Source: Deltaproteobacteria bacterium
Lineage (GTDB): Bacteria > Myxococcota_A > UBA9160 > PR03
DNA length: 64,000 bases
Reading direction: 5' to 3'
Assembly: GCA_031396445.1 (NCBI GenBank)
Contig: JANNKU010000028.1
Location: 20,651 to 84,650 of the forward strand
Shown piece after piece: positions 7,723 through 26,222 of this stretch (the stretch's first letter is position 1; the number at the start of each line of letters is the position of its first letter). Position numbers and translations under genes: made by a program. The notes beneath the pieces are model-generated. The model made no database searches. It had not been told where the DNA came from and saw only the letters and a program-made list of their open reading frames with translations.

Positions 7723-10233
7723 ATGCGCCGCACGCTCCGTTCCACTCTCCTGCTGCTCCCCTACCTCGTCGGTCTCGGTTGCGACGATCCCCGCGTCGCC
7801 GACTTTGGCCTGCCGATCGCCGGCGGCGGTCTCCCGGTGACCGTCTTCGTGCGTGCAGGCGTGGCTCCCGCCGACGTCCAGATCGTCCTCGACGGCCAGG
7901 ACGTGGGGCCGCTCTTCACGGCCGGGCCGCAGGGTCTCAGCGCCACGCTTTCGCTGCCGACTCCTGGCACACATGAGCTCGCCGTGACGCAGCCCGGAAC
8001 GCTCGGCGTGCCGGTGCTGCAGAAGAAATTCTTCGAGGTGCCCGCACCTACGCCTACTCTTTCAAGCGTCACGCCCGCGGCGGGATCGATTCCCGTCACG
8101 TCCTGGTTTCGCTTCGAGTTCCAGCAGGATGTGAACGCCGCGATGTTCTCGGGCTTCGGCTTTGCGCTCTCTTGCGGCGGACAGCAGATCCCTCGTTTCG
8201 CCTACACCGTCGAGAACCGGAGCGTCGTGCTCGATCCGTTGCTCGCGCTCCCGGCGGGCGCTTGTCGTGTGGTCTGGCGCGATGCGAGCGGCGCGGTGGA
8301 ACGAAACTTCAGCGTTGCAGCGAAGGCGACCACTGCGCTCGCATCGGCGATCTACGACCGCGAGAGCCCGCTGGCGTTCGCACCCTTCCCGGACGATTGG
8401 TGGACCGCGGGCGGCGTCGACACACCGACCGGTTTGCAGCTCGCCTTCTACGGGCCGGCCTTCGGCGATCTGCGCGACGGCGTGGTCGGCGGCATCGCGG
8501 CTTCGATGGCAGAGCTGGATGGGTGGAGCCCGATCGGACCGATCGTGCTCTCCTTCTCGCACGCGGTCGAACGATCGCTGCTTCCCGCGGATGAGTTCGC
8601 GGCGCAGAGTCCGTTCTCACCGATCGCGATCGTCGATGTCGATCCCGCCAGCCCTGAATACGGGGCGCGAATTCCTTTCCTGGTCGAAGCGCGCGACGAC
8701 CGGGCGCCGAACGGGAGCATCGATCACACGCTCATCTTGTTTCCATCGATCACGCTACGGCCGCATGGGCGCTACGCCGTGGTCGTCACGCAGCGGCTGA
8801 TCGCGGCCGGCGATGCCACGCGCCCGATCGGTCGCTCGGGATTTTTCCATCGCGCGGCGAGCGATCCGACGCTCGCGTCGACACCGGAAGAGGATTTCAT
8901 CCGCGAGACCATCGCCCCGCTGCTGGAGATCCTCGAAACCGCGCCGTCGGTTCCGATCTACCGGAACGACGTCGCGCTGGTGCTCAGCGTGTCCACGCGT
9001 TCGACGCTGCGGGATCCGTCGGACATGGTCGCGATCAAGGAAAATGCGCTGGTCGCGCCGCCGCCGGTGCTGACCGTCACGAGCATCAGCACCTCGGCGC
9101 AGCGGCGTCTGATCGTGCGCGGCACGCTCGCGATTCCGAGCTATCTGCCGCCGGACGACATGAGCGATCTCACGCGCGACGCGCAGAGCGGTCGCCCGCT
9201 CTCCGAGACCACCGAGGCCGTGCCCTTCACGATGACGCTTCCGAACCAGGCGCTCGCTGGACCAGTTCCGATCGCGATCTTCCAGCACGGAAGTCCGGGT
9301 ACACAGGAAGACGTTCTCAGCGTCAACAACGAATTCCTCGACGATGCCGGCTACGCGATCGTCGGGATCCAGGACACGGCGAACCGTCGCTTCGGCGACG
9401 ACTCCACGCTGCAGACCGTGGGCGTCTTGTTGCATCTGGTGGAGTTCGGGCACATCCCGCTACTCGAGTTGCAGACACACGCCGACTTGCAGTCGCTCGT
9501 GCGTGCCCTCGAGGGGATCGCCGCGAGCGACTGGTTGCCGAACGGTGCACCCAATGGCGTGCCCGAGCTCGACACTTCGAAGATCGTCTACCGCGGTGTC
9601 AGCTTCGGCGCGCATCACTCGCTCGGCTTCCTGCCCTTCGCACCCGAGGTGCGCGCGGCGGCGAGCATCGTGGGCGCCGGGCGATTCTTCGAGAATTCGA
9701 TCCACCAGATCGACCACTACGGTGTGTTGGGCCAGATCCAGCAAGTGATCCCCGCGCTCCGTCCGATCGAATTGCTCGTGGGTCTCGCGGCGCTGCAGAA
9801 CGACGAAGATCGCCAGGATCCGCATCTGCTGGCGCGATACTTGTACCGGGAGCGACTGCCGATCGCGGGGATCTCGCCGTCGGCGCAGCCGCCGAGCCTG
9901 CTGTGGACCGAGGGCATCGGCGACACCGTCGTCTCGAACAACGCCACGCGCGCGGCGGCCCGAGAACTGGGCATCCCGCAGGTGCAGCGCGTGAAGCGCG
10001 CTTCGCCTGGGCTCGAGCAGGTGCCCGCGCCGCTTGCGGGCAACATCGGCCCCACGCGCACGGCGGGTCATTTCCAGTACGTGCCTTCGCAAACACCGAG
10101 TTGCGTCGCTGTGGGCTTGACGCAAGGCCATCACTGCCCGCAGCGCGCGACGGAGGCCCGGCAGCAGATCCTCACCTTCTTCTCGACCGCGCTCGCGGGC
10201 GGAGCGCCGCAGATCATCGATCCGTTGCCTTAG
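7723..10233 (+). CDS. Secreted lipoprotein: N-terminal Ig-like (SbsA_Ig-type) domains + C-terminal alpha/beta-hydrolase (lipase/esterase-like)
   Basis: Signal/lipobox-like N-terminus MRRTLRSTLLLLPYLVGLGC. Nucleophile elbow GVSFG (YRGVSFGAHHSLGF). IAIFQHGSPG oxyanion-like segment. 836-aa intact ORF. Confidence 0.7.
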   Translation: MRRTLRSTLLLLPYLVGLGCDDPRVADFGLPIAGGGLPVTVFVRAGVAPADVQIVLDGQDVGPLFTAGPQGLSATLSLPTPGTHELAVTQPGTLGVPVLQKKFFEVPAPTPTLSSVTPAAGSIPVTSWFRFEFQQDVNAAMFSGFGFALSCGGQQIPRFAYTVENRSVVLDPLLALPAGACRVVWRDASGAVERNFSVAAKATTALASAIYDRESPLAFAPFPDDWWTAGGVDTPTGLQLAFYGPAFGDLRDGVVGGIAASMAELDGWSPIGPIVLSFSHAVERSLLPADEFAAQSPFSPIAIVDVDPASPEYGARIPFLVEARDDRAPNGSIDHTLILFPSITLRPHGRYAVVVTQRLIAAGDATRPIGRSGFFHRAASDPTLASTPEEDFIRETIAPLLEILETAPSVPIYRNDVALVLSVSTRSTLRDPSDMVAIKENALVAPPPVLTVTSISTSAQRRLIVRGTLAIPSYLPPDDMSDLTRDAQSGRPLSETTEAVPFTMTLPNQALAGPVPIAIFQHGSPGTQEDVLSVNNEFLDDAGYAIVGIQDTANRRFGDDSTLQTVGVLLHLVEFGHIPLLELQTHADLQSLVRALEGIAASDWLPNGAPNGVPELDTSKIVYRGVSFGAHHSLGFLPFAPEVRAAASIVGAGRFFENSIHQIDHYGVLGQIQQVIPALRPIELLVGLAALQNDEDRQDPHLLARYLYRERLPIAGISPSAQPPSLLWTEGIGDTVVSNNATRAAARELGIPQVQRVKRASPGLEQVPAPLAGNIGPTRTAGHFQYVPSQTPSCVAVGLTQGHHCPQRATEARQQILTFFSTALAGGAPQIIDPLP

Positions 10234-16284: not shown

Positions 16285-16363
16285 CGTTTCCTCCGATTCT
16301 TGATCGTCGAATCTACGCGCTGCGCGTTGACACAGAATCCATTCACCGTAGCATGCGCGCCGC

Positions 16364-16723
16364 ATGAGCAAGTTCACCGCGCATCGGATCGCCGCAGCGT
16401 TCGCCGCGCTGCTGTCGTCGATGGCGTTTGCCGGATCGGTCAGTGCCGTGACGCTCGTCTCGAGCTGGCCGATCGGTGGCGACTCCGTGCCGGTCACGAT
16501 GACGTTCACCGACTTGCCGAGCGGCAACGGCGTCGAGATCACCGTCTCGATTCCAGAAGGAACCGGCGATCTGCTCGGCCTCTTCGGAAATGTCACCGAC
16601 GAGAGCCTCGTCCCGCAGCTCGATACAGTCGGGTCGCTCGTGTACCAAGAACAGTTCGCGGCGAATCTCGTCTACAAGGTCGGTGGCGGCAACGAAGTCG
16701 CTCCGGTGCAGCAATGGGATTAG
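16364..16723 (+). CDS. Signal-peptide-bearing N-terminal fragment, in frame with the following giant ORF (separated by one TAG)
   Basis: MSKFTAHRIAAAFAALLSSMAFAGSVSA|VTLV... is a Sec signal with an AxA site. The ORF ends at TAG 16721-16723, and the next 20 codons remain open in the same frame up to the track start of ORF 16784. Confidence 0.65.
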   Translation: MSKFTAHRIAAAFAALLSSMAFAGSVSAVTLVSSWPIGGDSVPVTMTFTDLPSGNGVEITVSIPEGTGDLLGLFGNVTDESLVPQLDTVGSLVYQEQFAANLVYKVGGGNEVAPVQQWD

Positions 16724-16783
16724 GGGCTGCGCTTCGAGAGTTCCACCTGGCAGAGCGAAGACATCCACACCGTCACGTTTCAG

Positions 16784-19700
16784 TTGACCGCTCCGGGTTT
16801 GACGAGCGTTCATCTGCTCAACGCCGCCAACCAGGGCTGGTACTTCGGCGTCCGGATCCGCCACACCCTCGGCCCCAAAACAAAAGCGAGCATTGGCTTT
16901 CCGGTGAGCCCGCCGCCCGCCGGTATCGCGGCCACGATTGCAATCTCGACACCCGCCGAAGCAGCGCTCTTTGTGCAGAGCGACGTTCCTGTTGCTGGAA
17001 CCCTGACCGGGACGACGCCCATCGCCGTCACCGTGAATGGCATCTGGGCCTACCTCAGTTCGGGATCCGTCGGCTTTCAACGCACCCTCACGCTGACCGA
17101 CGGCACGCACACGATTCGCGCGCTTGCGGGCAACTCTTGGGGGCACATGGGCGATGAGGTCACGGTCACAGTCGATACGGTCGCGCCCGTCATCTCCATC
17201 GCGGCGCCAGCCGCCGGAACGCTCACGACTGGCGACTCGATCATCGTCTCGGGAACAGCGACCGACGCAACGAGCGGCATCGCGAGTGTCGTCGTAAACG
17301 GCGTCTCGGCGACACTCGTTGGGAGCGCCTTCAACGCATTGGTCCCGCTCGCGCTCGGCGCGAACTCGATCACGGCGACGGCGACGGATGTGGCGGGCAA
17401 CACTGCGGCTGCGTCCAGGAGCGTCACGCGCGGGATCACGCCGACCGTTGTCATCACCGCGCCTGCTGCAGGACTTCTCACGAACCAGACTCCGATCGCG
17501 GTCACCGGAACTGTGAGTGGCACCGTCCCCGTCACGGTGACAGTCAACGGCGTTGCGGCGACCGTCACGGGCGAAACGTGGACCGCGAGTGTCGCGCTCG
17601 GGGAAGGGAGCAACACGCTCAGCGCGAGCGCGGTGAATGCGTTTGGCAATGGCAGCAGCTCGGTGGCGGTGACGCTCGACTCGACTCCGCCGCTCGTCTC
17701 GATCGCCGCGCCCGCAAACGGGACGACAGTGACGAGCCAACCGATTGCAGTGAGCGGAACGGTCGCCGACGCGAGCGCGATCGCATCGCTCCACGTCAAC
17801 GGCGACCCCATCGCCGCGAGCAACTCGTTCGCGACGACTGCCGCTCTCGCAACCGGCTCGAACACGATCGTCGTCGAAGCTACTGACGCTGCGGGCAACG
17901 CCGGCTCTGCCTCGGTCGCTGTGACCTACCAGCCGGCGACGTCGCTCTCAATCGAAATTGAAACGCCTCCCGCTGGCGCCCTCTTCTCGAAGGCCGAGGT
18001 CGAGGTCGCGGGCGCCGTGAGCGATCCGGTCGCGTCGGTGCGCGTGAACGGTGTACTCGCGACTGTCACGGGCGAGCGGTGGGTCGCATCCCGCGTGCCG
18101 CTCGCGGAAGGCCCCAACACGCTCACGGCTACGGCGACACGCGGAAACGACAGTGCAGCGGCAGCCGTCGCCGTCACGTACAACGCGCCGCCGCAGGTGG
18201 TGATCACGTCGCCCGCCGCGGGTGCGCTCTTTCGAACCGATGCGACCGATGTCGAGGGCGTCGTCGATGATCTCGCGGCGTTCGTCGATGTGAACGGCGT
18301 CATCTCAAGCGTCGGCGCGGGTGGTCGCTTCGTCGCGAGCGGAGTCGCGCTCGCACCCGGCGACAACACAATCATCGCGCGCGCCATCGACACGCTCGGT
18401 GCGAAGGGCACCGACTCGGTCGCCGTCCTGCGCGACGACGCCGCGGCTGGTCGCACGCGCCTCGTGATCCGCGAGAGCAACAGGTGGGTGGAGCCCTTGG
18501 AGGTAGTCTTCGCGAGCCTCGGTGATTGGGATGAGAGCCTTCGCGTCGGCAACGATCTAGGAACCTTTCCGCGGCCCTACGACATCGGCCGCGAGCGATT
18601 CCAACCGGTACCCGACGTCCCAACGGTTTATCCCGGGGAGCAGGTCTTCCTGCTCTCGGAGGAAGCTGGAGATGTCGACTTCGTGTCATTCCTCGGCCAC
18701 GAGACGGCAGCGCATCTCTCCCAAGCGGGAGTGTCGACGTTCCCGATGGAAGACCTCGGTATCTACCTCCCGCTCGAGATGCTCGCGTTGCCGGAGGTTC
18801 TCGAGCCGGGCGACTTCGAGCCGCGCTTCTTCGCGGTCGGCGACTCGCTCCTTGTCGCTTGCATAGTCGACAGTTGCCCGCCCGGCTCCATCGAGGGTGG
18901 ACGCGTGCGGCTGCGGGCAACCCAAGACGGTGTGCAGCGCGAGATCGCTCTCGCTGTCGATGCGAGACGCCCCGAGTTCGAGTTCTTCTCGCCGGGCGGC
19001 AGCTCCGTGATCGCCGGTGGTCTGGTCACGGTGACGGGCGTCGTCCGCGACGCGGGTCCGCTGCTCGACACGGTGTCCTACACGGTGTCCGATGAGTTCG
19101 GCATCGTCGTGTACGAGGGGCTCGTTCCGCTCCTCGTCGATTTGATCGATGGACCGAGCCCGGCGTTCCGCGGCCGCTTCGCGATCCCTGATCTCGTGCT
19201 CGCCAATGGACTCCATTTCGTCGAGGTGACGGCCTGGGATTCGCTCGGCAATCGGCGGATCTCGGGCACCGAGTTCACGATCGACGCCGATGCGCCAGCC
19301 GCCTCGCTCTACTCGCCTCTCGACGGCTCGGCATTCGTTGAGAGCGAAGTCCAGGCATCGCTCAACTTCGGAGCGCCGACGACAATCGTTTCCGTGAACG
19401 AAGTCCCCGACGGCCGGAGTTTCCCTGCCGGGATAGCCGCCAACGTCCTCACGCTGCCGCTCACACTCGGCCCGAATCTCGTCGAAGTCGAAGTACAGAA
19501 CAGCGCCGGCGTCTTCCTACTCTCGTTCACGCTGCACCGCGTGAGCGAGCAGCGCGAGGTCCGCATCATCGCGCCCGTCGCCGGCAATCTCGTGAACACG
19601 CACACCCTCACCGTCATGGGCACCGTGCCCCTCGGCGCCCCCGCCGTACTCGTGAACGGCGTCCTCGGCGCGATCGCGCCCGACCGCGTGTCGTTCACGG

Positions 19701-22534
19701 CGACGATTCCGGTTCCCTCGACGGAGAACATCGTGATCGATGGCGACGTGGCGAGGAAGCCATTCGCGATCACCGCCGAAGCGCTTCCACTCGGCGGGAG
19801 CGCCACGGTCGAGGTGACGCCCGACTTCCAGTTGCCACAGTTCCGCGTCGTGCTGCCCGAGGACGGCGCGTTCACGAGCGAAGCCGCCGTGGCGCTCACG
19901 GGCTTCCTCTCCGAAGCCGCGACCGTATCAATCGAAACGCTCGATGGGCCGCTCGTGGTTTCGACCGTCCGCGACCGCGCGCGCGAGGACGCGGAGCCCT
20001 TCAATCCCTTCAACGCAAAGCAGTTCCATCGCTTCGAGCTGCCAGAGATTGCGCTCGCGACGGGCGCGAACGCGCTGACGCTCCGCGCGCGGGACCGGGC
20101 GGGGAACGAAGGCGCTCGCACCCTCACGCTGACACGGGGCGACACGAGCCTCGCGCTGGTGAGTCCTGTGTCCGGCAGCACCGTCGCCGAGCGCGTGACG
20201 GGCGTCATGGTGCGCGCGGCGGCGGACCTGACGATCGACGCATGCTTCGTCGCAGGCCGCCAGATTCCTTCGCTCGGCGGAGCCACCATCGGGGCAGGAG
20301 TCGATACGCCGATCAACGGCCTGCCGCTCGTGCCCGGTGCGAACGACGTGCGCATCGTCCATCACCGCGCGGGCGGCGCGAGCGAAGTGCTTCGCTTCCA
20401 GCTCACTTCGACGGCCGCCGACTACGCGACGGTCTCCGGCCACGTGACCGACGTGCGCACCGGCGAAGCCGTTGCCGGCGCGCTCGTCTCGATCACCGCG
20501 GGCGGCGTGAGCTTCACCGTCGCTACGGACGCCAATGGGAACTATCTCGCGCAGGTGGCGCCGGGTTCGATTGCGGTAGCGACCGTCGCCGAGGGCTACG
20601 CCGCGGCGAGCGCATCGGGCAGCGCCGCGGCAGGCGCGACGCTCGTCGCCGACGTCGGCCTCGCTTCGACCGGCGTTCCCGCAGTGGCGAATGAAGTGCG
20701 TATCCTCGTACCGCCCGCAGGAGCCGTGACCGACTTCGCGATGCTGACGGTCGTCGGCACGGTGCTCAATCCTACTTCTACTGTCACGGTGAACGGGATC
20801 GCGGCGCAGGTCGTGGGCAATCGCTTCACAGCCAAGCATGTGCCGCTCGCGATGGGGGCGAACACGATCGCGGCGAGCGCGATGGTGCTCGGGTTGCCGA
20901 ACGCGACGCGAAGTGTCGGCGTCGCGCGGTCGGATGAGCCGGTGTTGCAGGTGAAGCTGTTCTCGCCGCCGGATGGCGCGACGGTGCCGGGCGGCGGGAT
21001 CGTCGTGCGCGGCTTTGCGAGTGCGGAGACTGTGCTCGTTCAAGTCTCGGGCGGAGGAGTAGCGGTACCCGTGGAGGGGGTATTCGAGGCCGCGGACGTC
21101 GCGCTGCCGATGGACGCAACGGAGATTGACGTCTCGGTTCGAACGATCGACGGTGCCCAAACCGCCCTCGCGTCGAGTGGAGTCACCGTGGACCGCGTCG
21201 GGTCTGCCCTCGTGCTCGGCGCCGATCCCGTCAATGGGAATGTTCCGCTCGAGACCGAACTCCAGCTCACCGCCACGCTGCCGCTCATTGCCGTCGCGCG
21301 CATCGACTTCGATCTCGACGGCAACGGAGTCCTGGACGTGCTGGCAAGCGCCAGCGCGACTGCGAGTCTGACGATCTCGGAGCCGACGCTCAGGCTGGCG
21401 CGTGCCTATGCGACGACGCACTCGGGCGTGGAGCTTTCCGCGCCGGTCGCTCTGCACGCGCATCTGCCCGCGACCCCGCTCCGGAGCTTTGCCGCGGGCA
21501 ATCCCGTCGATCTAGCGCCCGGCGCGGGCAACGATCTCTACGTCCTCGACGCGACGGCTGGGCGGGTTACTCGCTATGACCAGGACGGAACGGAACTCGA
21601 TGGCTTCGGCAGCTCCGGCGCCGGTCCCGACCAACTTGCGAGTCCACAGGCGTTCGCCGTCGGCGCCGACGGTCGCTTCTATGTCGCGGATACGGGGAAC
21701 GACCGAGTCCAGGTATTCACTCCGGCCGGTACGTTCGAGCGCAGCATCGGGGCGGGAGATCTGAGCGGACCATCGGGCGTCGCGGTCGACGGAGATCTCC
21801 TGATCGTGTCGGACACCGGAGCAGGCCGGCTTCGGATCTTCCGGCTCGACGGAGCGCCAGTCGCATCGGTTCCGATCGCGAATCCTCGTGGCATTGCGAC
21901 GACGGCCGCCGGCGGCGTTCTCGTCGCGAGTCCGAGCCAGGGGCTCCGTACTTTCTCGGACGGAGTGCTCACGACGATCGCGGCGATCGAGTCGCTGCCG
22001 CCCGAGCAACAGCCCGCATCACCGGTGGATGTCGTGGAAGGATCGGACTCGACGCTCGTAGCGGGCGCGTCGACTGGATCGGTCGTGCAGTTCTGGCCGA
22101 GTCTTCGGCTGCGACGGGTGATCTCCGACGTGGCGGGCGCGAAGGCTGTGCTCACCGGCCAGCGGCGGGAGATCGAGTCGATCTATGTCGCCGATGGAAA
22201 GCGGGTCACCGAAGTCGGTCTACCCGTTCCTTCGCCGCTGCCCACGCTGACGGCGCTGAAGGCGCGACTGCTCGCGCTGGACATCGAGGGCGCGCTCGAG
22301 TGGATCTCGCCGGAGCGACGAGCGTATTTCCGCGACGTCTACGAACGGAGCGGCGCAACGTTGGCAACCGAGGCCGCTGCGATGGGCCAACTCGACATCG
22401 ATCTCTTGCGGGAAGGTCGCGCAATCGCGCTGATCCATCGCGAAGTGCAGGAACCCACGGGCCCGGTGGATCGTCAGTATCCCGTGTATCTCGTGCGGTC
22501 GGCGGACGGAAGATGGCTCGTTCTCGACTACTGA
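16784..22534 (+). CDS. Giant surface/secreted protein: at least 11 Ig-like modules, a CarboxypepD_reg-like domain, an NHL-repeat beta-propeller and an NTF2-like C-terminal domain
   Basis: 1916-aa ORF. Recurrent module: ..P..G......I.VSG.V.D.....V.VNGV.A...G..F.A.V.L..G.N.I.A.A.D.AGN.....V.VT. CarboxypepD_reg segment: TVSGHVTDVRTGEAVAGALVSITAGGVSFTVATDANGNY. NHL repeats: FYVADTGNDRVQVFTPAGTF, LLIVSDTGAGRLRIF. The track start is a TTG with no signal peptide. Confidence 0.8.
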   Translation: MTAPGLTSVHLLNAANQGWYFGVRIRHTLGPKTKASIGFPVSPPPAGIAATIAISTPAEAALFVQSDVPVAGTLTGTTPIAVTVNGIWAYLSSGSVGFQRTLTLTDGTHTIRALAGNSWGHMGDEVTVTVDTVAPVISIAAPAAGTLTTGDSIIVSGTATDATSGIASVVVNGVSATLVGSAFNALVPLALGANSITATATDVAGNTAAASRSVTRGITPTVVITAPAAGLLTNQTPIAVTGTVSGTVPVTVTVNGVAATVTGETWTASVALGEGSNTLSASAVNAFGNGSSSVAVTLDSTPPLVSIAAPANGTTVTSQPIAVSGTVADASAIASLHVNGDPIAASNSFATTAALATGSNTIVVEATDAAGNAGSASVAVTYQPATSLSIEIETPPAGALFSKAEVEVAGAVSDPVASVRVNGVLATVTGERWVASRVPLAEGPNTLTATATRGNDSAAAAVAVTYNAPPQVVITSPAAGALFRTDATDVEGVVDDLAAFVDVNGVISSVGAGGRFVASGVALAPGDNTIIARAIDTLGAKGTDSVAVLRDDAAAGRTRLVIRESNRWVEPLEVVFASLGDWDESLRVGNDLGTFPRPYDIGRERFQPVPDVPTVYPGEQVFLLSEEAGDVDFVSFLGHETAAHLSQAGVSTFPMEDLGIYLPLEMLALPEVLEPGDFEPRFFAVGDSLLVACIVDSCPPGSIEGGRVRLRATQDGVQREIALAVDARRPEFEFFSPGGSSVIAGGLVTVTGVVRDAGPLLDTVSYTVSDEFGIVVYEGLVPLLVDLIDGPSPAFRGRFAIPDLVLANGLHFVEVTAWDSLGNRRISGTEFTIDADAPAASLYSPLDGSAFVESEVQASLNFGAPTTIVSVNEVPDGRSFPAGIAANVLTLPLTLGPNLVEVEVQNSAGVFLLSFTLHRVSEQREVRIIAPVAGNLVNTHTLTVMGTVPLGAPAVLVNGVLGAIAPDRVSFTATIPVPSTENIVIDGDVARKPFAITAEALPLGGSATVEVTPDFQLPQFRVVLPEDGAFTSEAAVALTGFLSEAATVSIETLDGPLVVSTVRDRAREDAEPFNPFNAKQFHRFELPEIALATGANALTLRARDRAGNEGARTLTLTRGDTSLALVSPVSGSTVAERVTGVMVRAAADLTIDACFVAGRQIPSLGGATIGAGVDTPINGLPLVPGANDVRIVHHRAGGASEVLRFQLTSTAADYATVSGHVTDVRTGEAVAGALVSITAGGVSFTVATDANGNYLAQVAPGSIAVATVAEGYAAASASGSAAAGATLVADVGLASTGVPAVANEVRILVPPAGAVTDFAMLTVVGTVLNPTSTVTVNGIAAQVVGNRFTAKHVPLAMGANTIAASAMVLGLPNATRSVGVARSDEPVLQVKLFSPPDGATVPGGGIVVRGFASAETVLVQVSGGGVAVPVEGVFEAADVALPMDATEIDVSVRTIDGAQTALASSGVTVDRVGSALVLGADPVNGNVPLETELQLTATLPLIAVARIDFDLDGNGVLDVLASASATASLTISEPTLRLARAYATTHSGVELSAPVALHAHLPATPLRSFAAGNPVDLAPGAGNDLYVLDATAGRVTRYDQDGTELDGFGSSGAGPDQLASPQAFAVGADGRFYVADTGNDRVQVFTPAGTFERSIGAGDLSGPSGVAVDGDLLIVSDTGAGRLRIFRLDGAPVASVPIANPRGIATTAAGGVLVASPSQGLRTFSDGVLTTIAAIESLPPEQQPASPVDVVEGSDSTLVAGASTGSVVQFWPSLRLRRVISDVAGAKAVLTGQRREIESIYVADGKRVTEVGLPVPSPLPTLTALKARLLALDIEGALEWISPERRAYFRDVYERSGATLATEAAAMGQLDIDLLREGRAIALIHREVQEPTGPVDRQYPVYLVRSADGRWLVLDY

Positions 22535-23082
22535 TCCTCGGGTTGGCCGTCACGGTCTTCCTGATCTTCTGGCTGCCGCTCTACAACTGCGGACCGATCT
22601 GGGCACGCCAACTCGAAGGCCAAGTGATCGACAAGGCGACGGGTAAACCGGTTCCCGAGGCGGAGGTCTTCGCGCTCTATCAGATGCGGCTCGGAGGTAC
22701 GATCGATTGGCGTTGGACGACGACGGACGCAGAAGGGCGGTTCGTCATCCCGGGCCATCTCGCGATCTTCTACTTCGGAAGGAGAGGCATCTTCGACCAG
22801 ACGGACAAGTACCCGCTCATCGAGGTCTTGCATCCGGCGTATGGGAGGTTCTGGTGGGGTGGCGGCAACTACGAGCCGGACTGGAGCTGGCGGAACGTTC
22901 GCATCGAGATCGAACGCGATGCGATCTGGTTGAAGGGCCTCGAACGAGATCGAAAGCGCGAAGACGCAGGCTTGTGTAACTACATGCCGTCAACGGCCCG
23001 CATACGTTGTTGCGAGTTGCTGTTCGGTAGCGACGCGGCTCGGATCTGCGCGCCCCCACGGCCAGGGACACTTCCGCGATGA
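22513..23082 (+). CDS. Membrane-anchored CarboxypepD_reg-like domain protein
   Basis: ATG 22513 (MARSRLLILGLAVTVFLIFWLPLY = N-terminal TM) overlaps the giant gene's 3' end by 22 nt. Domain segment: GQVIDKATGKPVPEAEVFA...TTTDAEGRFVIPG. ATGA overlap with the next gene. Confidence 0.6.
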   Translation: MARSRLLILGLAVTVFLIFWLPLYNCGPIWARQLEGQVIDKATGKPVPEAEVFALYQMRLGGTIDWRWTTTDAEGRFVIPGHLAIFYFGRRGIFDQTDKYPLIEVLHPAYGRFWWGGGNYEPDWSWRNVRIEIERDAIWLKGLERDRKREDAGLCNYMPSTARIRCCELLFGSDAARICAPPRPGTLPR

Positions 23083-26000
23083 ATAGATTGATGCGCTTGA
23101 TGATTCTCTCGTGGCTGGCAATGCCACAGTCGGCCCTCGCTTGGGGGAATCTGGAGGCTCATCCAGAGCTGACCAAGAGCGCCGTACTGCGCGACGAGCG
23201 GATCGCCCAACACCTTCGCGATGTCTACGGACTGGCACAAGGACTCGACGCCGAGCTCGCAGTGCAGGTTGGCTTCGACGACAGCACGGATCTCGACATC
23301 TTGGGCGGCGGCCCCGACAGTCAATCTCGGTTCGCGCAGAGCTGGAACAGCGGGATATTCCAAGACGCGGTCGAGACGCCGCCCTTCGATACACAGATAT
23401 TGCTGAATGCCGCGTGTCGAGCCCCGTCGTGTCTCGACGATCTGGCGCGGCGCAGTGTTCTCACCCTCCTTCGCTCGGGCTCGTTCGGCGAAGACAACCC
23501 GAACATCAGAGCGAGCCACCACTTCCACGACCCGGTGAAGCATCACGATGAGCCCGAGGTCACGGTTCCTGGGCAGTCTGTACCGCCCGGGAACAAGGGT
23601 CTGGACAACACGCAAGAGTATGTAACCGGAGAGCTCAAGGCGCTGGCTGCGAGCTTCGCCACGCTTTGGCTGCGCGGTGGGGGTGGAGACTTCCGATTCT
23701 TCGGGCGATCCGCCTTGGATCGCGCGTTGAACGAGCCCATCGGGAATCCGGCGTCTTCGGCCGCACCCGAGAACTTCTTCGCGCTCACGGACGCAGAGCA
23801 CTATCTGTTCGAGTCCGCCATGGCGTCATTGGCCGGCGAACGTGAGCACTACCTGGCGCTGCACTTCCTTGCCGTCGGGAGCGTGCTTCATCTGCTCCAG
23901 GACATGAGCAGCGTCGCCCACACACGAAACGATTTCCTTGCGGATCACCTCTATCCCGAGCTCGTTCCGTTCTCCGGTCTCACTCTCGAGGGCGCGGGTG
24001 AGCAAAGCGCGCTGTTGGGGTTTGTTGGACAGTTCGGTAAGTCCGAGACGGATGTCCTGGCGGCGTCTCCCGCTATCGCTCTGGCAAACCTCGATCCGAC
24101 CCGGTTTACCGGCTTGTACGCGTCGAGACTGCCGTTCTTCGACCCATCGGGAGCCGCATTCGCGGACTTCTGGGATTCGCCCAGCCGGCTCGGCCTCGCC
24201 GAGTTCACCAATGCGCACTTCTTCAGCCGCGCCACGGTCGACGACCGCTACGTCGCGGGGAACCCGAGCGCCACCTCCGAGACCGGCTACCCGTCGCCAC
24301 GTGTTGCCGGCTGCCAACTCGGTGCGGAAGCGGGCACCGGGAGTGCAAGAACCTTCGTGACGCTGCTGCCCCGGCGCGATCTCGACACCGGCCGGTTCCT
24401 CGGGCCGGAATCCGAGATTCCGTTTCTCTCGAGCGAGACCGTTCCGCACCTCGCGAAATGCGGTTGGCATGCGGCGGCAGCACCGAGCGTCATCGACGAC
24501 AGCGTGATGCGCGACTACTTGGAGATGCTGCTGCCGCTCGCCGTCGACTACAGCGCGAAGTTCCTGGAGCGATACTTCGCGCCGCGGATCGCCGTTCGCG
24601 CCGTCGGCGAGCGAGAGTTCCGCATCGAGAACGTGTCCGATCTCCCGATCCGCATTCGCGCCTCCGAGCTGCGCGCGGCCTACGACGACGACGACGGGAA
24701 CCGGTGGTCGATCGAACTGGACTGCGGAAGCGGCGCCTCGGAGATCGAGATCGAGCCCAGCGAGACGTCGGAGGCAACGTGCACGCTTCCGACCTCGCTG
24801 CCCTCCGCCAACGAACCACCCGCGGTGAGCGCCGACTTCTGGGTCGTGGCGCGTGGCGCGCACGGAACGCGTGGGAGCGCCGACCCGAGCGAGTTCGAGA
24901 CCCGCGGATTCGTGACGCTCGTCGCGCACATCCAGCCGCAGCTCCTCGTGCACGGCGCGATCACGAACGAAGCCTTCACCGATGACGACCCGCGCTACCC
25001 GATCGACATCTTCGCGATCCCGCTCGACCTCGGTCGCGAGGTGGCGGAGAACGACGTCCCCCCGACGCGCACCAATCTGACCGCTGCCCTGCGCGCGTCG
25101 ATCGGCAGCGCCTCGCTCGATCTCACGTCACCGAACGGCGAGCCGGGAGGAGTACGGATCGCGCTGCGCTCGGACAAGGACGCAACGGAGGCGGACGGAT
25201 TCTTCCTCGATGTCGCGGCTCCGCAGAAGGCGTACCTATTCGATCCAACCGCTCCGCCTTCATCGCCGGATGCGCTCACGCTGATTCCCGAATCGCAGAT
25301 CCACCTGCCGAACGGCCGACCTCACCTCGCGCCGCTCTTCAGTGGCGACGGCGCCGCGATCTTCTACTACGAGGACACCTCATTTGCCTCACAAGCGGAG
25401 AGAAGCTCGAAGGACGCATTGCTTCGCTATCGCATCGCAGACGAGCAGCACACGCGCTTCACGGATCGCATCGCCCTCGCGGCGTCGGACCCCGATGAAA
25501 CTCCCGACGATCGCGACCTCGGAGATCGGCGCGACGTCTGTGAGGGCCTAGAGAACGTGTCCGCTCGCTTGGAGTCGGTCATTGCGGGGCAGGTGAGCTG
25601 CCACCCCGAAGTGGTGCAAGCGCTTCCGAACGGGCAGAAGTTCTGGAGTGCGACGGGTCCATTTCGCCGAGAGATCCGCATCGCAACCGTCGAGCCGGCG
25701 GTCGACGAGCCGGGCAAGCTCGAAGCCCGCTATACGGATCGAATCGACGTCGTCGCGGGTGCAGCAATCCAGTGTGGCGGGAGCCCGAACCAATGCTGGC
25801 AGCGAGGCGGCGAACCGAGCGGCGGAGCGGTTGCACACGACGACGGCGTCGCTTGGTCGCCCGATGGAACTCGAATCGCATTCCTCCGGACACCGACGAG
25901 CAACCCGCTCGAATTCGAACAGGAGATCTGGGTCGCCGATCTGGTCACCCGCGAGGTCCGGCGCGTGATGACGGACGAGCACGGTGACCCGGGGGTCCCG

Positions 26001-26222
26001 CAGTGGTCGCCCGATGGAGACTGGCTGGTCTTCGGGATGAGTGTCGGAGCGCAAGCCGTCGTTACGCCCAATGGCTTGATCACCGAGAGCGAAGGCGACA
26101 TCGATGTTTACGCGATTCGCGCGGATGCCGCTTCGCCGCAGCCTCCGCAACGACTGACGCGCGGCCTCGAGCCGTTCTCGATCGGGATCTACGCGCCGCT
26201 TACGTTGCCGAGTACCCCGTGA
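23079..26222 (+). CDS. Secreted fusion protein: N-terminal zinc-dependent phospholipase C / P1-nuclease-like domain + long middle region + C-terminal TolB-like (PD40) beta-propeller repeats
   Basis: Signal peptide MNRLMRLMILSWLAMPQSALA followed directly by WGNLEAH (mature-N-terminal Trp + His, as in Zn-PLC/P1 nuclease). Further motifs: HHFHDP and VGSVLHLLQDMSSVAHTRND (H..D...H). C-terminus: GVAWSPDGTRIAFLR...EIWVADL...PQWSPDGDWLVF. Confidence 0.7.
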   Translation: MNRLMRLMILSWLAMPQSALAWGNLEAHPELTKSAVLRDERIAQHLRDVYGLAQGLDAELAVQVGFDDSTDLDILGGGPDSQSRFAQSWNSGIFQDAVETPPFDTQILLNAACRAPSCLDDLARRSVLTLLRSGSFGEDNPNIRASHHFHDPVKHHDEPEVTVPGQSVPPGNKGLDNTQEYVTGELKALAASFATLWLRGGGGDFRFFGRSALDRALNEPIGNPASSAAPENFFALTDAEHYLFESAMASLAGEREHYLALHFLAVGSVLHLLQDMSSVAHTRNDFLADHLYPELVPFSGLTLEGAGEQSALLGFVGQFGKSETDVLAASPAIALANLDPTRFTGLYASRLPFFDPSGAAFADFWDSPSRLGLAEFTNAHFFSRATVDDRYVAGNPSATSETGYPSPRVAGCQLGAEAGTGSARTFVTLLPRRDLDTGRFLGPESEIPFLSSETVPHLAKCGWHAAAAPSVIDDSVMRDYLEMLLPLAVDYSAKFLERYFAPRIAVRAVGEREFRIENVSDLPIRIRASELRAAYDDDDGNRWSIELDCGSGASEIEIEPSETSEATCTLPTSLPSANEPPAVSADFWVVARGAHGTRGSADPSEFETRGFVTLVAHIQPQLLVHGAITNEAFTDDDPRYPIDIFAIPLDLGREVAENDVPPTRTNLTAALRASIGSASLDLTSPNGEPGGVRIALRSDKDATEADGFFLDVAAPQKAYLFDPTAPPSSPDALTLIPESQIHLPNGRPHLAPLFSGDGAAIFYYEDTSFASQAERSSKDALLRYRIADEQHTRFTDRIALAASDPDETPDDRDLGDRRDVCEGLENVSARLESVIAGQVSCHPEVVQALPNGQKFWSATGPFRREIRIATVEPAVDEPGKLEARYTDRIDVVAGAAIQCGGSPNQCWQRGGEPSGGAVAHDDGVAWSPDGTRIAFLRTPTSNPLEFEQEIWVADLVTREVRRVMTDEHGDPGVPQWSPDGDWLVFGMSVGAQAVVTPNGLITESEGDIDVYAIRADAASPQPPQRLTRGLEPFSIGIYAPLTLPSTP

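Follow-up and report, generated by a model that had tools for sequence, protein, structure and literature searches.

The window analysed here, a stretch of 64,000 nucleotides, holds a short ORF with a signal peptide that is followed, in the same frame, by a giant Ig/NHL ORF of 1916 residues that has none. A single TAG stands between the two, and this layout raises the question of whether the locus encodes two proteins, one protein made by reading through the stop, one gene broken by mutation, or one intact gene misread during sequencing or assembly. A previous sequence-only reading of the window had proposed a single ancestral gene at 16364..22534 and had listed all four explanations for its interruption; we addressed them by comparison with homologs.

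Layout of the interrupted gene and its intact ortholog

The shorter ORF begins at ATG 16364 and terminates at TAG 16721-16723 after 119 codons, as read directly from the window. Its N-terminus (MSKFTAHRIAAAFAALLSSMAFAGSVSA, followed by VTL...) displays a Sec-type pattern of n-, h- and c-regions in a by-eye call, and homologs carry comparable hydrophobic N-termini, with A-x-A directly before a conserved V/I-T-[YF]. Positions 16364 and 16784, the latter being the start of the 1916-aa ORF, lie in one frame, and the 20 intervening codons (GLRFESSTWQSEDIHTVTFQ) contain no stop. The frame that opens at 16364 therefore reaches TGA 22532-22534, spanning 2056 codons with codon 120 as its sole internal stop. 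Two observations of the sequence-only reading, namely a signal-peptide ORF of this extent (signal plus about 90 residues, here 91) and a frame that stays open past the TAG as far as 22534, are hence confirmed. The features of the locus are as follows.

16327..16354, + strand: sigma-70-like promoter, predicted (TTGACA, 16 nt, TAGCAT; consensus match 10/12, with 0.3 sites expected in shuffles)
16364..22534, + strand: ancestral single gene, now interrupted (collinear with the intact 6171-nt ORF of L002, with 10 gap columns in 2063)
16364..16447, + strand: predicted signal-peptide coding region, residues 1-28 (by-eye call)
16364..16723, + strand: truncated product, a 119-aa precursor (91 aa after signal cleavage) that ends mid-domain, from the ORF translation
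16448..16906, + strand: conserved N-terminal domain of ~150-160 aa, defined by homolog alignment and interrupted by the TAG
16721..16723, + strand: in-frame TAG in place of a conserved Trp codon (TGG>TAG, G>A transition at 16722)
16724..22534, + strand: stranded gene body without a separate start or signal peptide (Pfam, start scan, dN/dS versus L002 of 0.28)
16784..16786, + strand: TTG, the first start-type codon past the stop and the mechanical start of the 1916-aa ORF

The gene body includes the rest of the N-terminal domain (its second half) and a C-terminal region; in Pfam terms, the part downstream of the stop also has nine Glucodextran_B/Big_13 Ig-like stretches, one CarboxypepD_reg-like domain and the NHL repeats. 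The 119-aa ORF corresponds to an NCBI protein record (P0002, from a contig of 99,942 bp). The C-terminal 257 residues, used as a protein query, returned relatives at 43-45% only, with no record of the downstream ORF or of a closer strain.

The best ortholog, L002 (CAWDFQ010000014.1), comes from a deltaproteobacterial/Myxococcota-type MAG and consists of one intact ORF that runs from GTG 7974 to TGA 14144. At 6171 nt it has the exact length of window 16364-22534, it carries a predicted signal peptide, and its product is 70.9% identical to the window protein across 2050 aligned residues. The gene 3' of this ORF is 76% identical to the window gene at 23079-26222, which matches the two neighbourhoods and identifies the loci as syntenic orthologs. 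The alignment of the window with L002 has 10 gap columns in 2063 positions, plus the single stop. Downstream of the stop, dN is 0.194 and dS 0.69 (dN/dS = 0.28), indicating that purifying selection has acted on the gene body during essentially the whole divergence of the two. A single lesion in a gene with this dN/dS implies that the stop is either recent or not real. Thus, the intact ortholog of equal length, together with the continuity of other orthologs across the site described below, identifies 16364..22534 as the ancestral gene, and the proposal made from the window alone is borne out by the length of the L002 ORF, its signal peptide and synteny.

As a start, the TTG at 16784 is not homologous, and it lies within a beta strand (TFQL) that is conserved. 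None of the post-stop in-frame starts considered (16784, 16799, 16904, 16973, 17033 and 17147) precedes a signal-peptide-like sequence, so that the reported absence of a signal peptide from the TTG-started ORF holds for the later candidate starts as well. The same reading had pointed to the lack of a visible ribosome-binding site at the TTG. Indeed, no clear SD motif was found upstream of any of these six candidate starts; as an argument this carries little weight, since SD-like motifs are scarce ahead of most predicted genes in the window (~68% GC), and ATG 16364 is also without one. The non-homologous start and the absent signal peptide are the stronger points.

The predicted -10 hexamer of the promoter-like site, TAGCAT, ends 9 nt ahead of ATG 16364, and this spacing suggests that the mRNA of the 16364 gene may be leaderless or near-leaderless. 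In L002 (7959-7976), the corresponding arrangement is TAGAGT, 9 nt and the GTG start, with non-canonical -35 spacing and no SD motif. No promoter-like site was found for the downstream piece.

The codon and the domain at the site of the stop

A protein search with the junction region identified P0001 (72% identical), which is uninterrupted across the site (...PVRNWDWGLRFESLNWQSEDIHTVTFQL...), and P0003-P0005, which carry WDWG or WDFG at this position and are also uninterrupted. In the DNA alignment, GAT TAG GGG of the window faces GAC TGG GGT in L001, the contig that encodes P0001 (72% identical), and the presence of TGG there defines the change as TGG>TAG, a single G>A transition. The altered base, 16722, was the leading G in what was ancestrally a TGGGGG run. 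Scans of genomes and metagenomes yielded 21 more loci, from deltaproteobacterial/Myxococcota-labelled MAGs and environmental contigs, and among the loci the site codon is TGG in most, TTC in five and CTC in one. An exhaustive profile search provided 37 motif-bearing proteins with W (28), F (4), Y (2), L (2) or I (1) at the site, nearly all of which have the domain at the extreme N-terminus with bodies of 800-2500 aa behind it.

Continuity across the site hence extends to ~25 loci and 37 proteins, and a stop at this codon occurs in none of the 22 loci and 37 proteins compared. The alignment that the sequence-only reading had called for thus returned a sense codon throughout, TGG or another specifying a hydrophobic or aromatic residue. 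The finding that it had named as contrary to its view, a stop shared by orthologs together with an independent start for the downstream gene, was seen in no ortholog, for either element. The codon found in the closest and most other orthologs, TGG, is one transition away from TAG.

The N-terminal domain is characterised by the motifs PIxGDSVPVT, GDLLGLFGN, KVGGGN, WD[W/F]G and QGWxFGVRIQ. No Pfam or NCBIfam model matches this region (the first ~190 residues), and comparison with PDB gave no significant fold match, no solved structure matching the domain. The TAG sits mid-domain, within the WD[W/F]G motif, and the Asp and Gly that flank the stop site are more than 90% conserved in the homolog alignment. 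In an AlphaFold model of the ortholog P0001, beta strands lie on either side of the site, in blocks with pLDDT of up to 95, and the Trp stands at the start of strand 129-133; this model was built from a shallow alignment of 16 rows and has a mean pLDDT of 66, with high values within the domain. The suggestion that both sides of the stop would form one continuous beta-sandwich draws on their co-conservation. In every homolog examined, the sequences that flank the stop are the two halves of one conserved domain, a layout that goes beyond what chance would produce.

The domain heads dozens of protein clusters at 50% identity, with proteins of 800-2500 aa, and is occasionally internal in proteins of 5000-7000 aa (P0047, P0080, P0107).

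Origin of the stop codon

We consider it probable that the TAG reflects a real and recent nonsense mutation, TGG (Trp120)>TAG, and that the locus is a null allele or young pseudogene. Such an event is an ordinary, textbook phenomenon. The type of mutation is the expected one: 59% of single-base nonsense changes in the codon usage of this gene lead to TAG, and bacterial mutation is dominated by GC>AT changes (PMC2936535). The gene of a giant secreted Ig-repeat/NHL protein would have been struck by one recent G>A at 16722. Ribosomes that initiate at ATG 16364 would then terminate at codon 120 and release the 119-aa precursor, and signal cleavage would leave an exported half-domain of 91 residues that is probably unstable. 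The remaining 1936 codons would go untranslated, save for basal near-cognate read-through or chance internal initiation, and any trace product arising from this body would be devoid of an export signal. In the sampled population the null allele could be fixed or polymorphic. For annotation, 16364..22534 would be entered as one disrupted gene, and both the TTG-started 1916-aa cytoplasmic Ig/NHL protein and the 119-aa secreted protein would be discarded; homologs alone can decide between a split and a broken gene without reads.

Giant adhesin genes have been inactivated in host-restricted Salmonella and in Yersinia pestis. Nonsense-mutation pseudogenes of large bacterial surface or adhesin genes are the nearest known kind (cf. 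PMC3102037, PMC11078800). The window locus is like them in that one premature stop interrupts a long gene whose product is an exported repeat protein, the remainder is open, orthologs are intact and a GC>AT transition made the stop. It differs in that its host is an uncultured high-GC (~68%) bacterium known only from an assembly, where the mutation is inseparable from an assembly error. Phase variation through length change of a homopolymer or short tandem repeat was also considered and does not fit, the lesion being a base substitution, although one that hits the first G of the TGGGGG run.

That the organism in fact has TGG and an intact 2056-aa gene, the A at 16722 being a consensus error or minor variant, appears unlikely to us. 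Apart from one lesion the gene is perfect (10 gap columns, dN/dS of 0.28), which is the state that one erroneous base would leave, and the relatives found are metagenome-assembled genomes, so that the source genome may be of this type as well. Internal-stop pseudogenes often turn out to be assembly errors, especially at low coverage (Cooley & Wright 2024, PMC11017572). The window locus resembles these spurious cases in its internal stop, its otherwise perfectly conserved gene and its draft or metagenome-type assembly; it departs from them in that the window has no excess of lesions and that homologs from other, independent samples carry reproducible lesions in the gene. In a composition scan of the 64-kb window, no further in-frame stop was detected within coding sequence and no gene was seen to be split, and the assembly therefore does not look error-prone; ten other window genes have full-length Pfam domains. 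It also counts against this explanation that single-base substitution is the least common type of assembly error. Overlapping ORF pairs elsewhere in the window were inspected as candidate further frameshifts and rejected, as they are distinct genes with complete domains.

Amber read-through or recoding (by a suppressor tRNA, by pyrrolysine or in programmed form) that yields useful amounts of full-length exported protein is very improbable. The frame downstream is intact, two other family members (L008 and the L025-L027 group) have an in-frame TAG rather than TGA or TAA, and bacteria show basal UAG read-through by near-cognate tRNAs. However, the stop is not conserved, orthologs having Trp, Phe or Leu codons in its place, and the other TAGs of the family fall at different codons (Gln, Ser). 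The L025 copy, moreover, also has a large deletion and is plainly decaying. The choice of TAG in all family stops was rejected as a signal, since 59% TAG is expected and three of three would arise from codon usage ~20% of the time (p ~0.2). TAG is also an ordinary terminator in the window, where composition-based calling places it at the end of 13 of the 39 predicted ORFs, 12 of these being other genes. Folding of the RNA past the stop gives no greater stability than that of shuffled sequences (z = +0.86), no Rfam motif matches after the stop, and the 64-kb window contains no tRNA genes. Programmed recoding (pyrrolysine UAG, selenocysteine UGA or read-through) has in common with the locus an in-frame stop and an open homologous frame downstream; in the window, by contrast, the stop is unconserved, no recoding element accompanies it and TAG terminates ordinary genes. 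Reassignment of TAG, Pyl and a suppressor were set aside on these same grounds, and amber read-through, one of the four options of the sequence-only reading, is left without support as a designed feature.

A genuine two-protein arrangement, in which the 119-aa protein is secreted, the 1916-aa protein is initiated separately and both function, is harder still to credit and we regard it as next to negligible. Both ORFs are open, the shorter one has its own protein record, and natural splits do exist within the family: in L003 (~10380), L011 (~10440) and L014 (~4780), two consecutive ORFs meet at the equivalent of window residue ~830-845 (~18850-18900), and the second gene opens with its own signal peptide (MGKRVRYLAAALVATGLSVAAPAA..., MRTRLRCLVVGLALAGLSAAP...). 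The fused single-ORF form is found in the window, L002, L006 and L013. In the natural two-gene forms the break lies between genes, at ~residue 830, whereas in the window it interrupts a conserved motif and domain, and the second part has no homologous start, signal peptide or promoter-like site. No ortholog is split at this position; with neither a stop here nor an independent start in any of them, the split arrangement raised earlier is refuted.

Lesions in related loci

What has happened to this gene elsewhere also bears on the case for a real nonsense mutation. Independent disabling lesions are present in ~5 of the 20 lineages ascertained at the DNA level, and also in lineages that came from short protein hits; they include in-frame TAGs of three kinds, frameshifts of at least five, and large deletions. 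Word-index protein matches were left out of this count: such searches are biased toward short ORFs, and by favouring truncated proteins they would overstate the breakage of the family. An exhaustive protein search indeed recovers many intact family proteins of 800-2500 aa.

In L008 (WBZY01017899.1), the triplet at 329-331 has changed from CAG to TAG with respect to the sister contig L006 (VVTQW, stop, AAPNQVWKVGGGN), in the same N-terminal domain and 21 codons upstream of the window's site. In L025 (5380-5382), L026 and L027 (ENA ERZ27258568/ERZ27258509, Logan SRR30303794), a TCG>TAG change affects the conserved EGSAKIG motif, and a large deletion after the TAG brings the N-terminal domain region next to the NHL/C-terminal part. 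The product of this lineage, P0009 (169 aa), is present on 13 contigs, so that its broken state is reproducible. L005 (CAADGG010000040.1; 8351-8372) has lost 1 nt right after TGGGACTGGGG, at most 3 nt away from the codon altered in the window, and L019 and L020 carry a +1 insertion frameshift.

In-frame deletion has also occurred. L023 (584-3092) and L024 (Logan SRR7051044/45) are syntenic with the window, at 74-79% nucleotide identity, and in both the signal peptide MSKRRTGARWLAMAVASVAFAPSA is fused to LEQWDWGLRFES (...EQWDWGLRFES), with ~3.5 kb of Ig repeats gone (the equivalent of window 16860-20360); an intact 720-aa NHL-containing ORF without signal peptide is present in these loci. L003 and L009, two unrelated loci, each have a frameshift at one shared Ig-repeat boundary (window residues ~521-528), the two separated by ~25 nt and caused by an extra C in a C8 run (L003, ~9520-9540) and by the loss of 1 nt (L009, ~9455-9470), respectively; the related L011 is intact there.

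A frameshift at ~residue 245 (L001, ~1385-1395) is common to P0001 and P0006, which come from two JGI samples; that of P0007, which comes from a third, is different and lies at ~residue 178. The closest N-terminal homologs, at 72% identity, are thus themselves frameshifted.

The independent lesions in relatives indicate that the gene is commonly subject to real inactivation, and they thereby make a real mutation at the window site more probable a priori. The further proposal that the window stop is one case of recurrent, possibly selected, inactivation in wild Myxococcota-like populations is doubtful. If it were correct, the gene might be an often-lost surface target, such as a receptor for phages or predators or a costly public good; a mutational hot spot in the TGG-GGN G-run may be the alternative. 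The existence of a conserved, uncharacterised N-terminal domain family that is often degraded in environmental genomes offers a modest lead on the turnover of surface proteins in uncultured Myxococcota.

Three lesions, namely the window TAG, the -1 frameshift of L005 and the end-point of the L023 deletion, lie within ~15 nt of the WDWG codons (p ~0.06 in a rough, post-hoc scan statistic). A trivial cause of this clustering is plausible, as a single transition turns a Trp codon into a stop and TGG-GGN makes up a G-run. Homopolymer indels do occur in the family, in the G-run of L005 and in the C8 run of L003.
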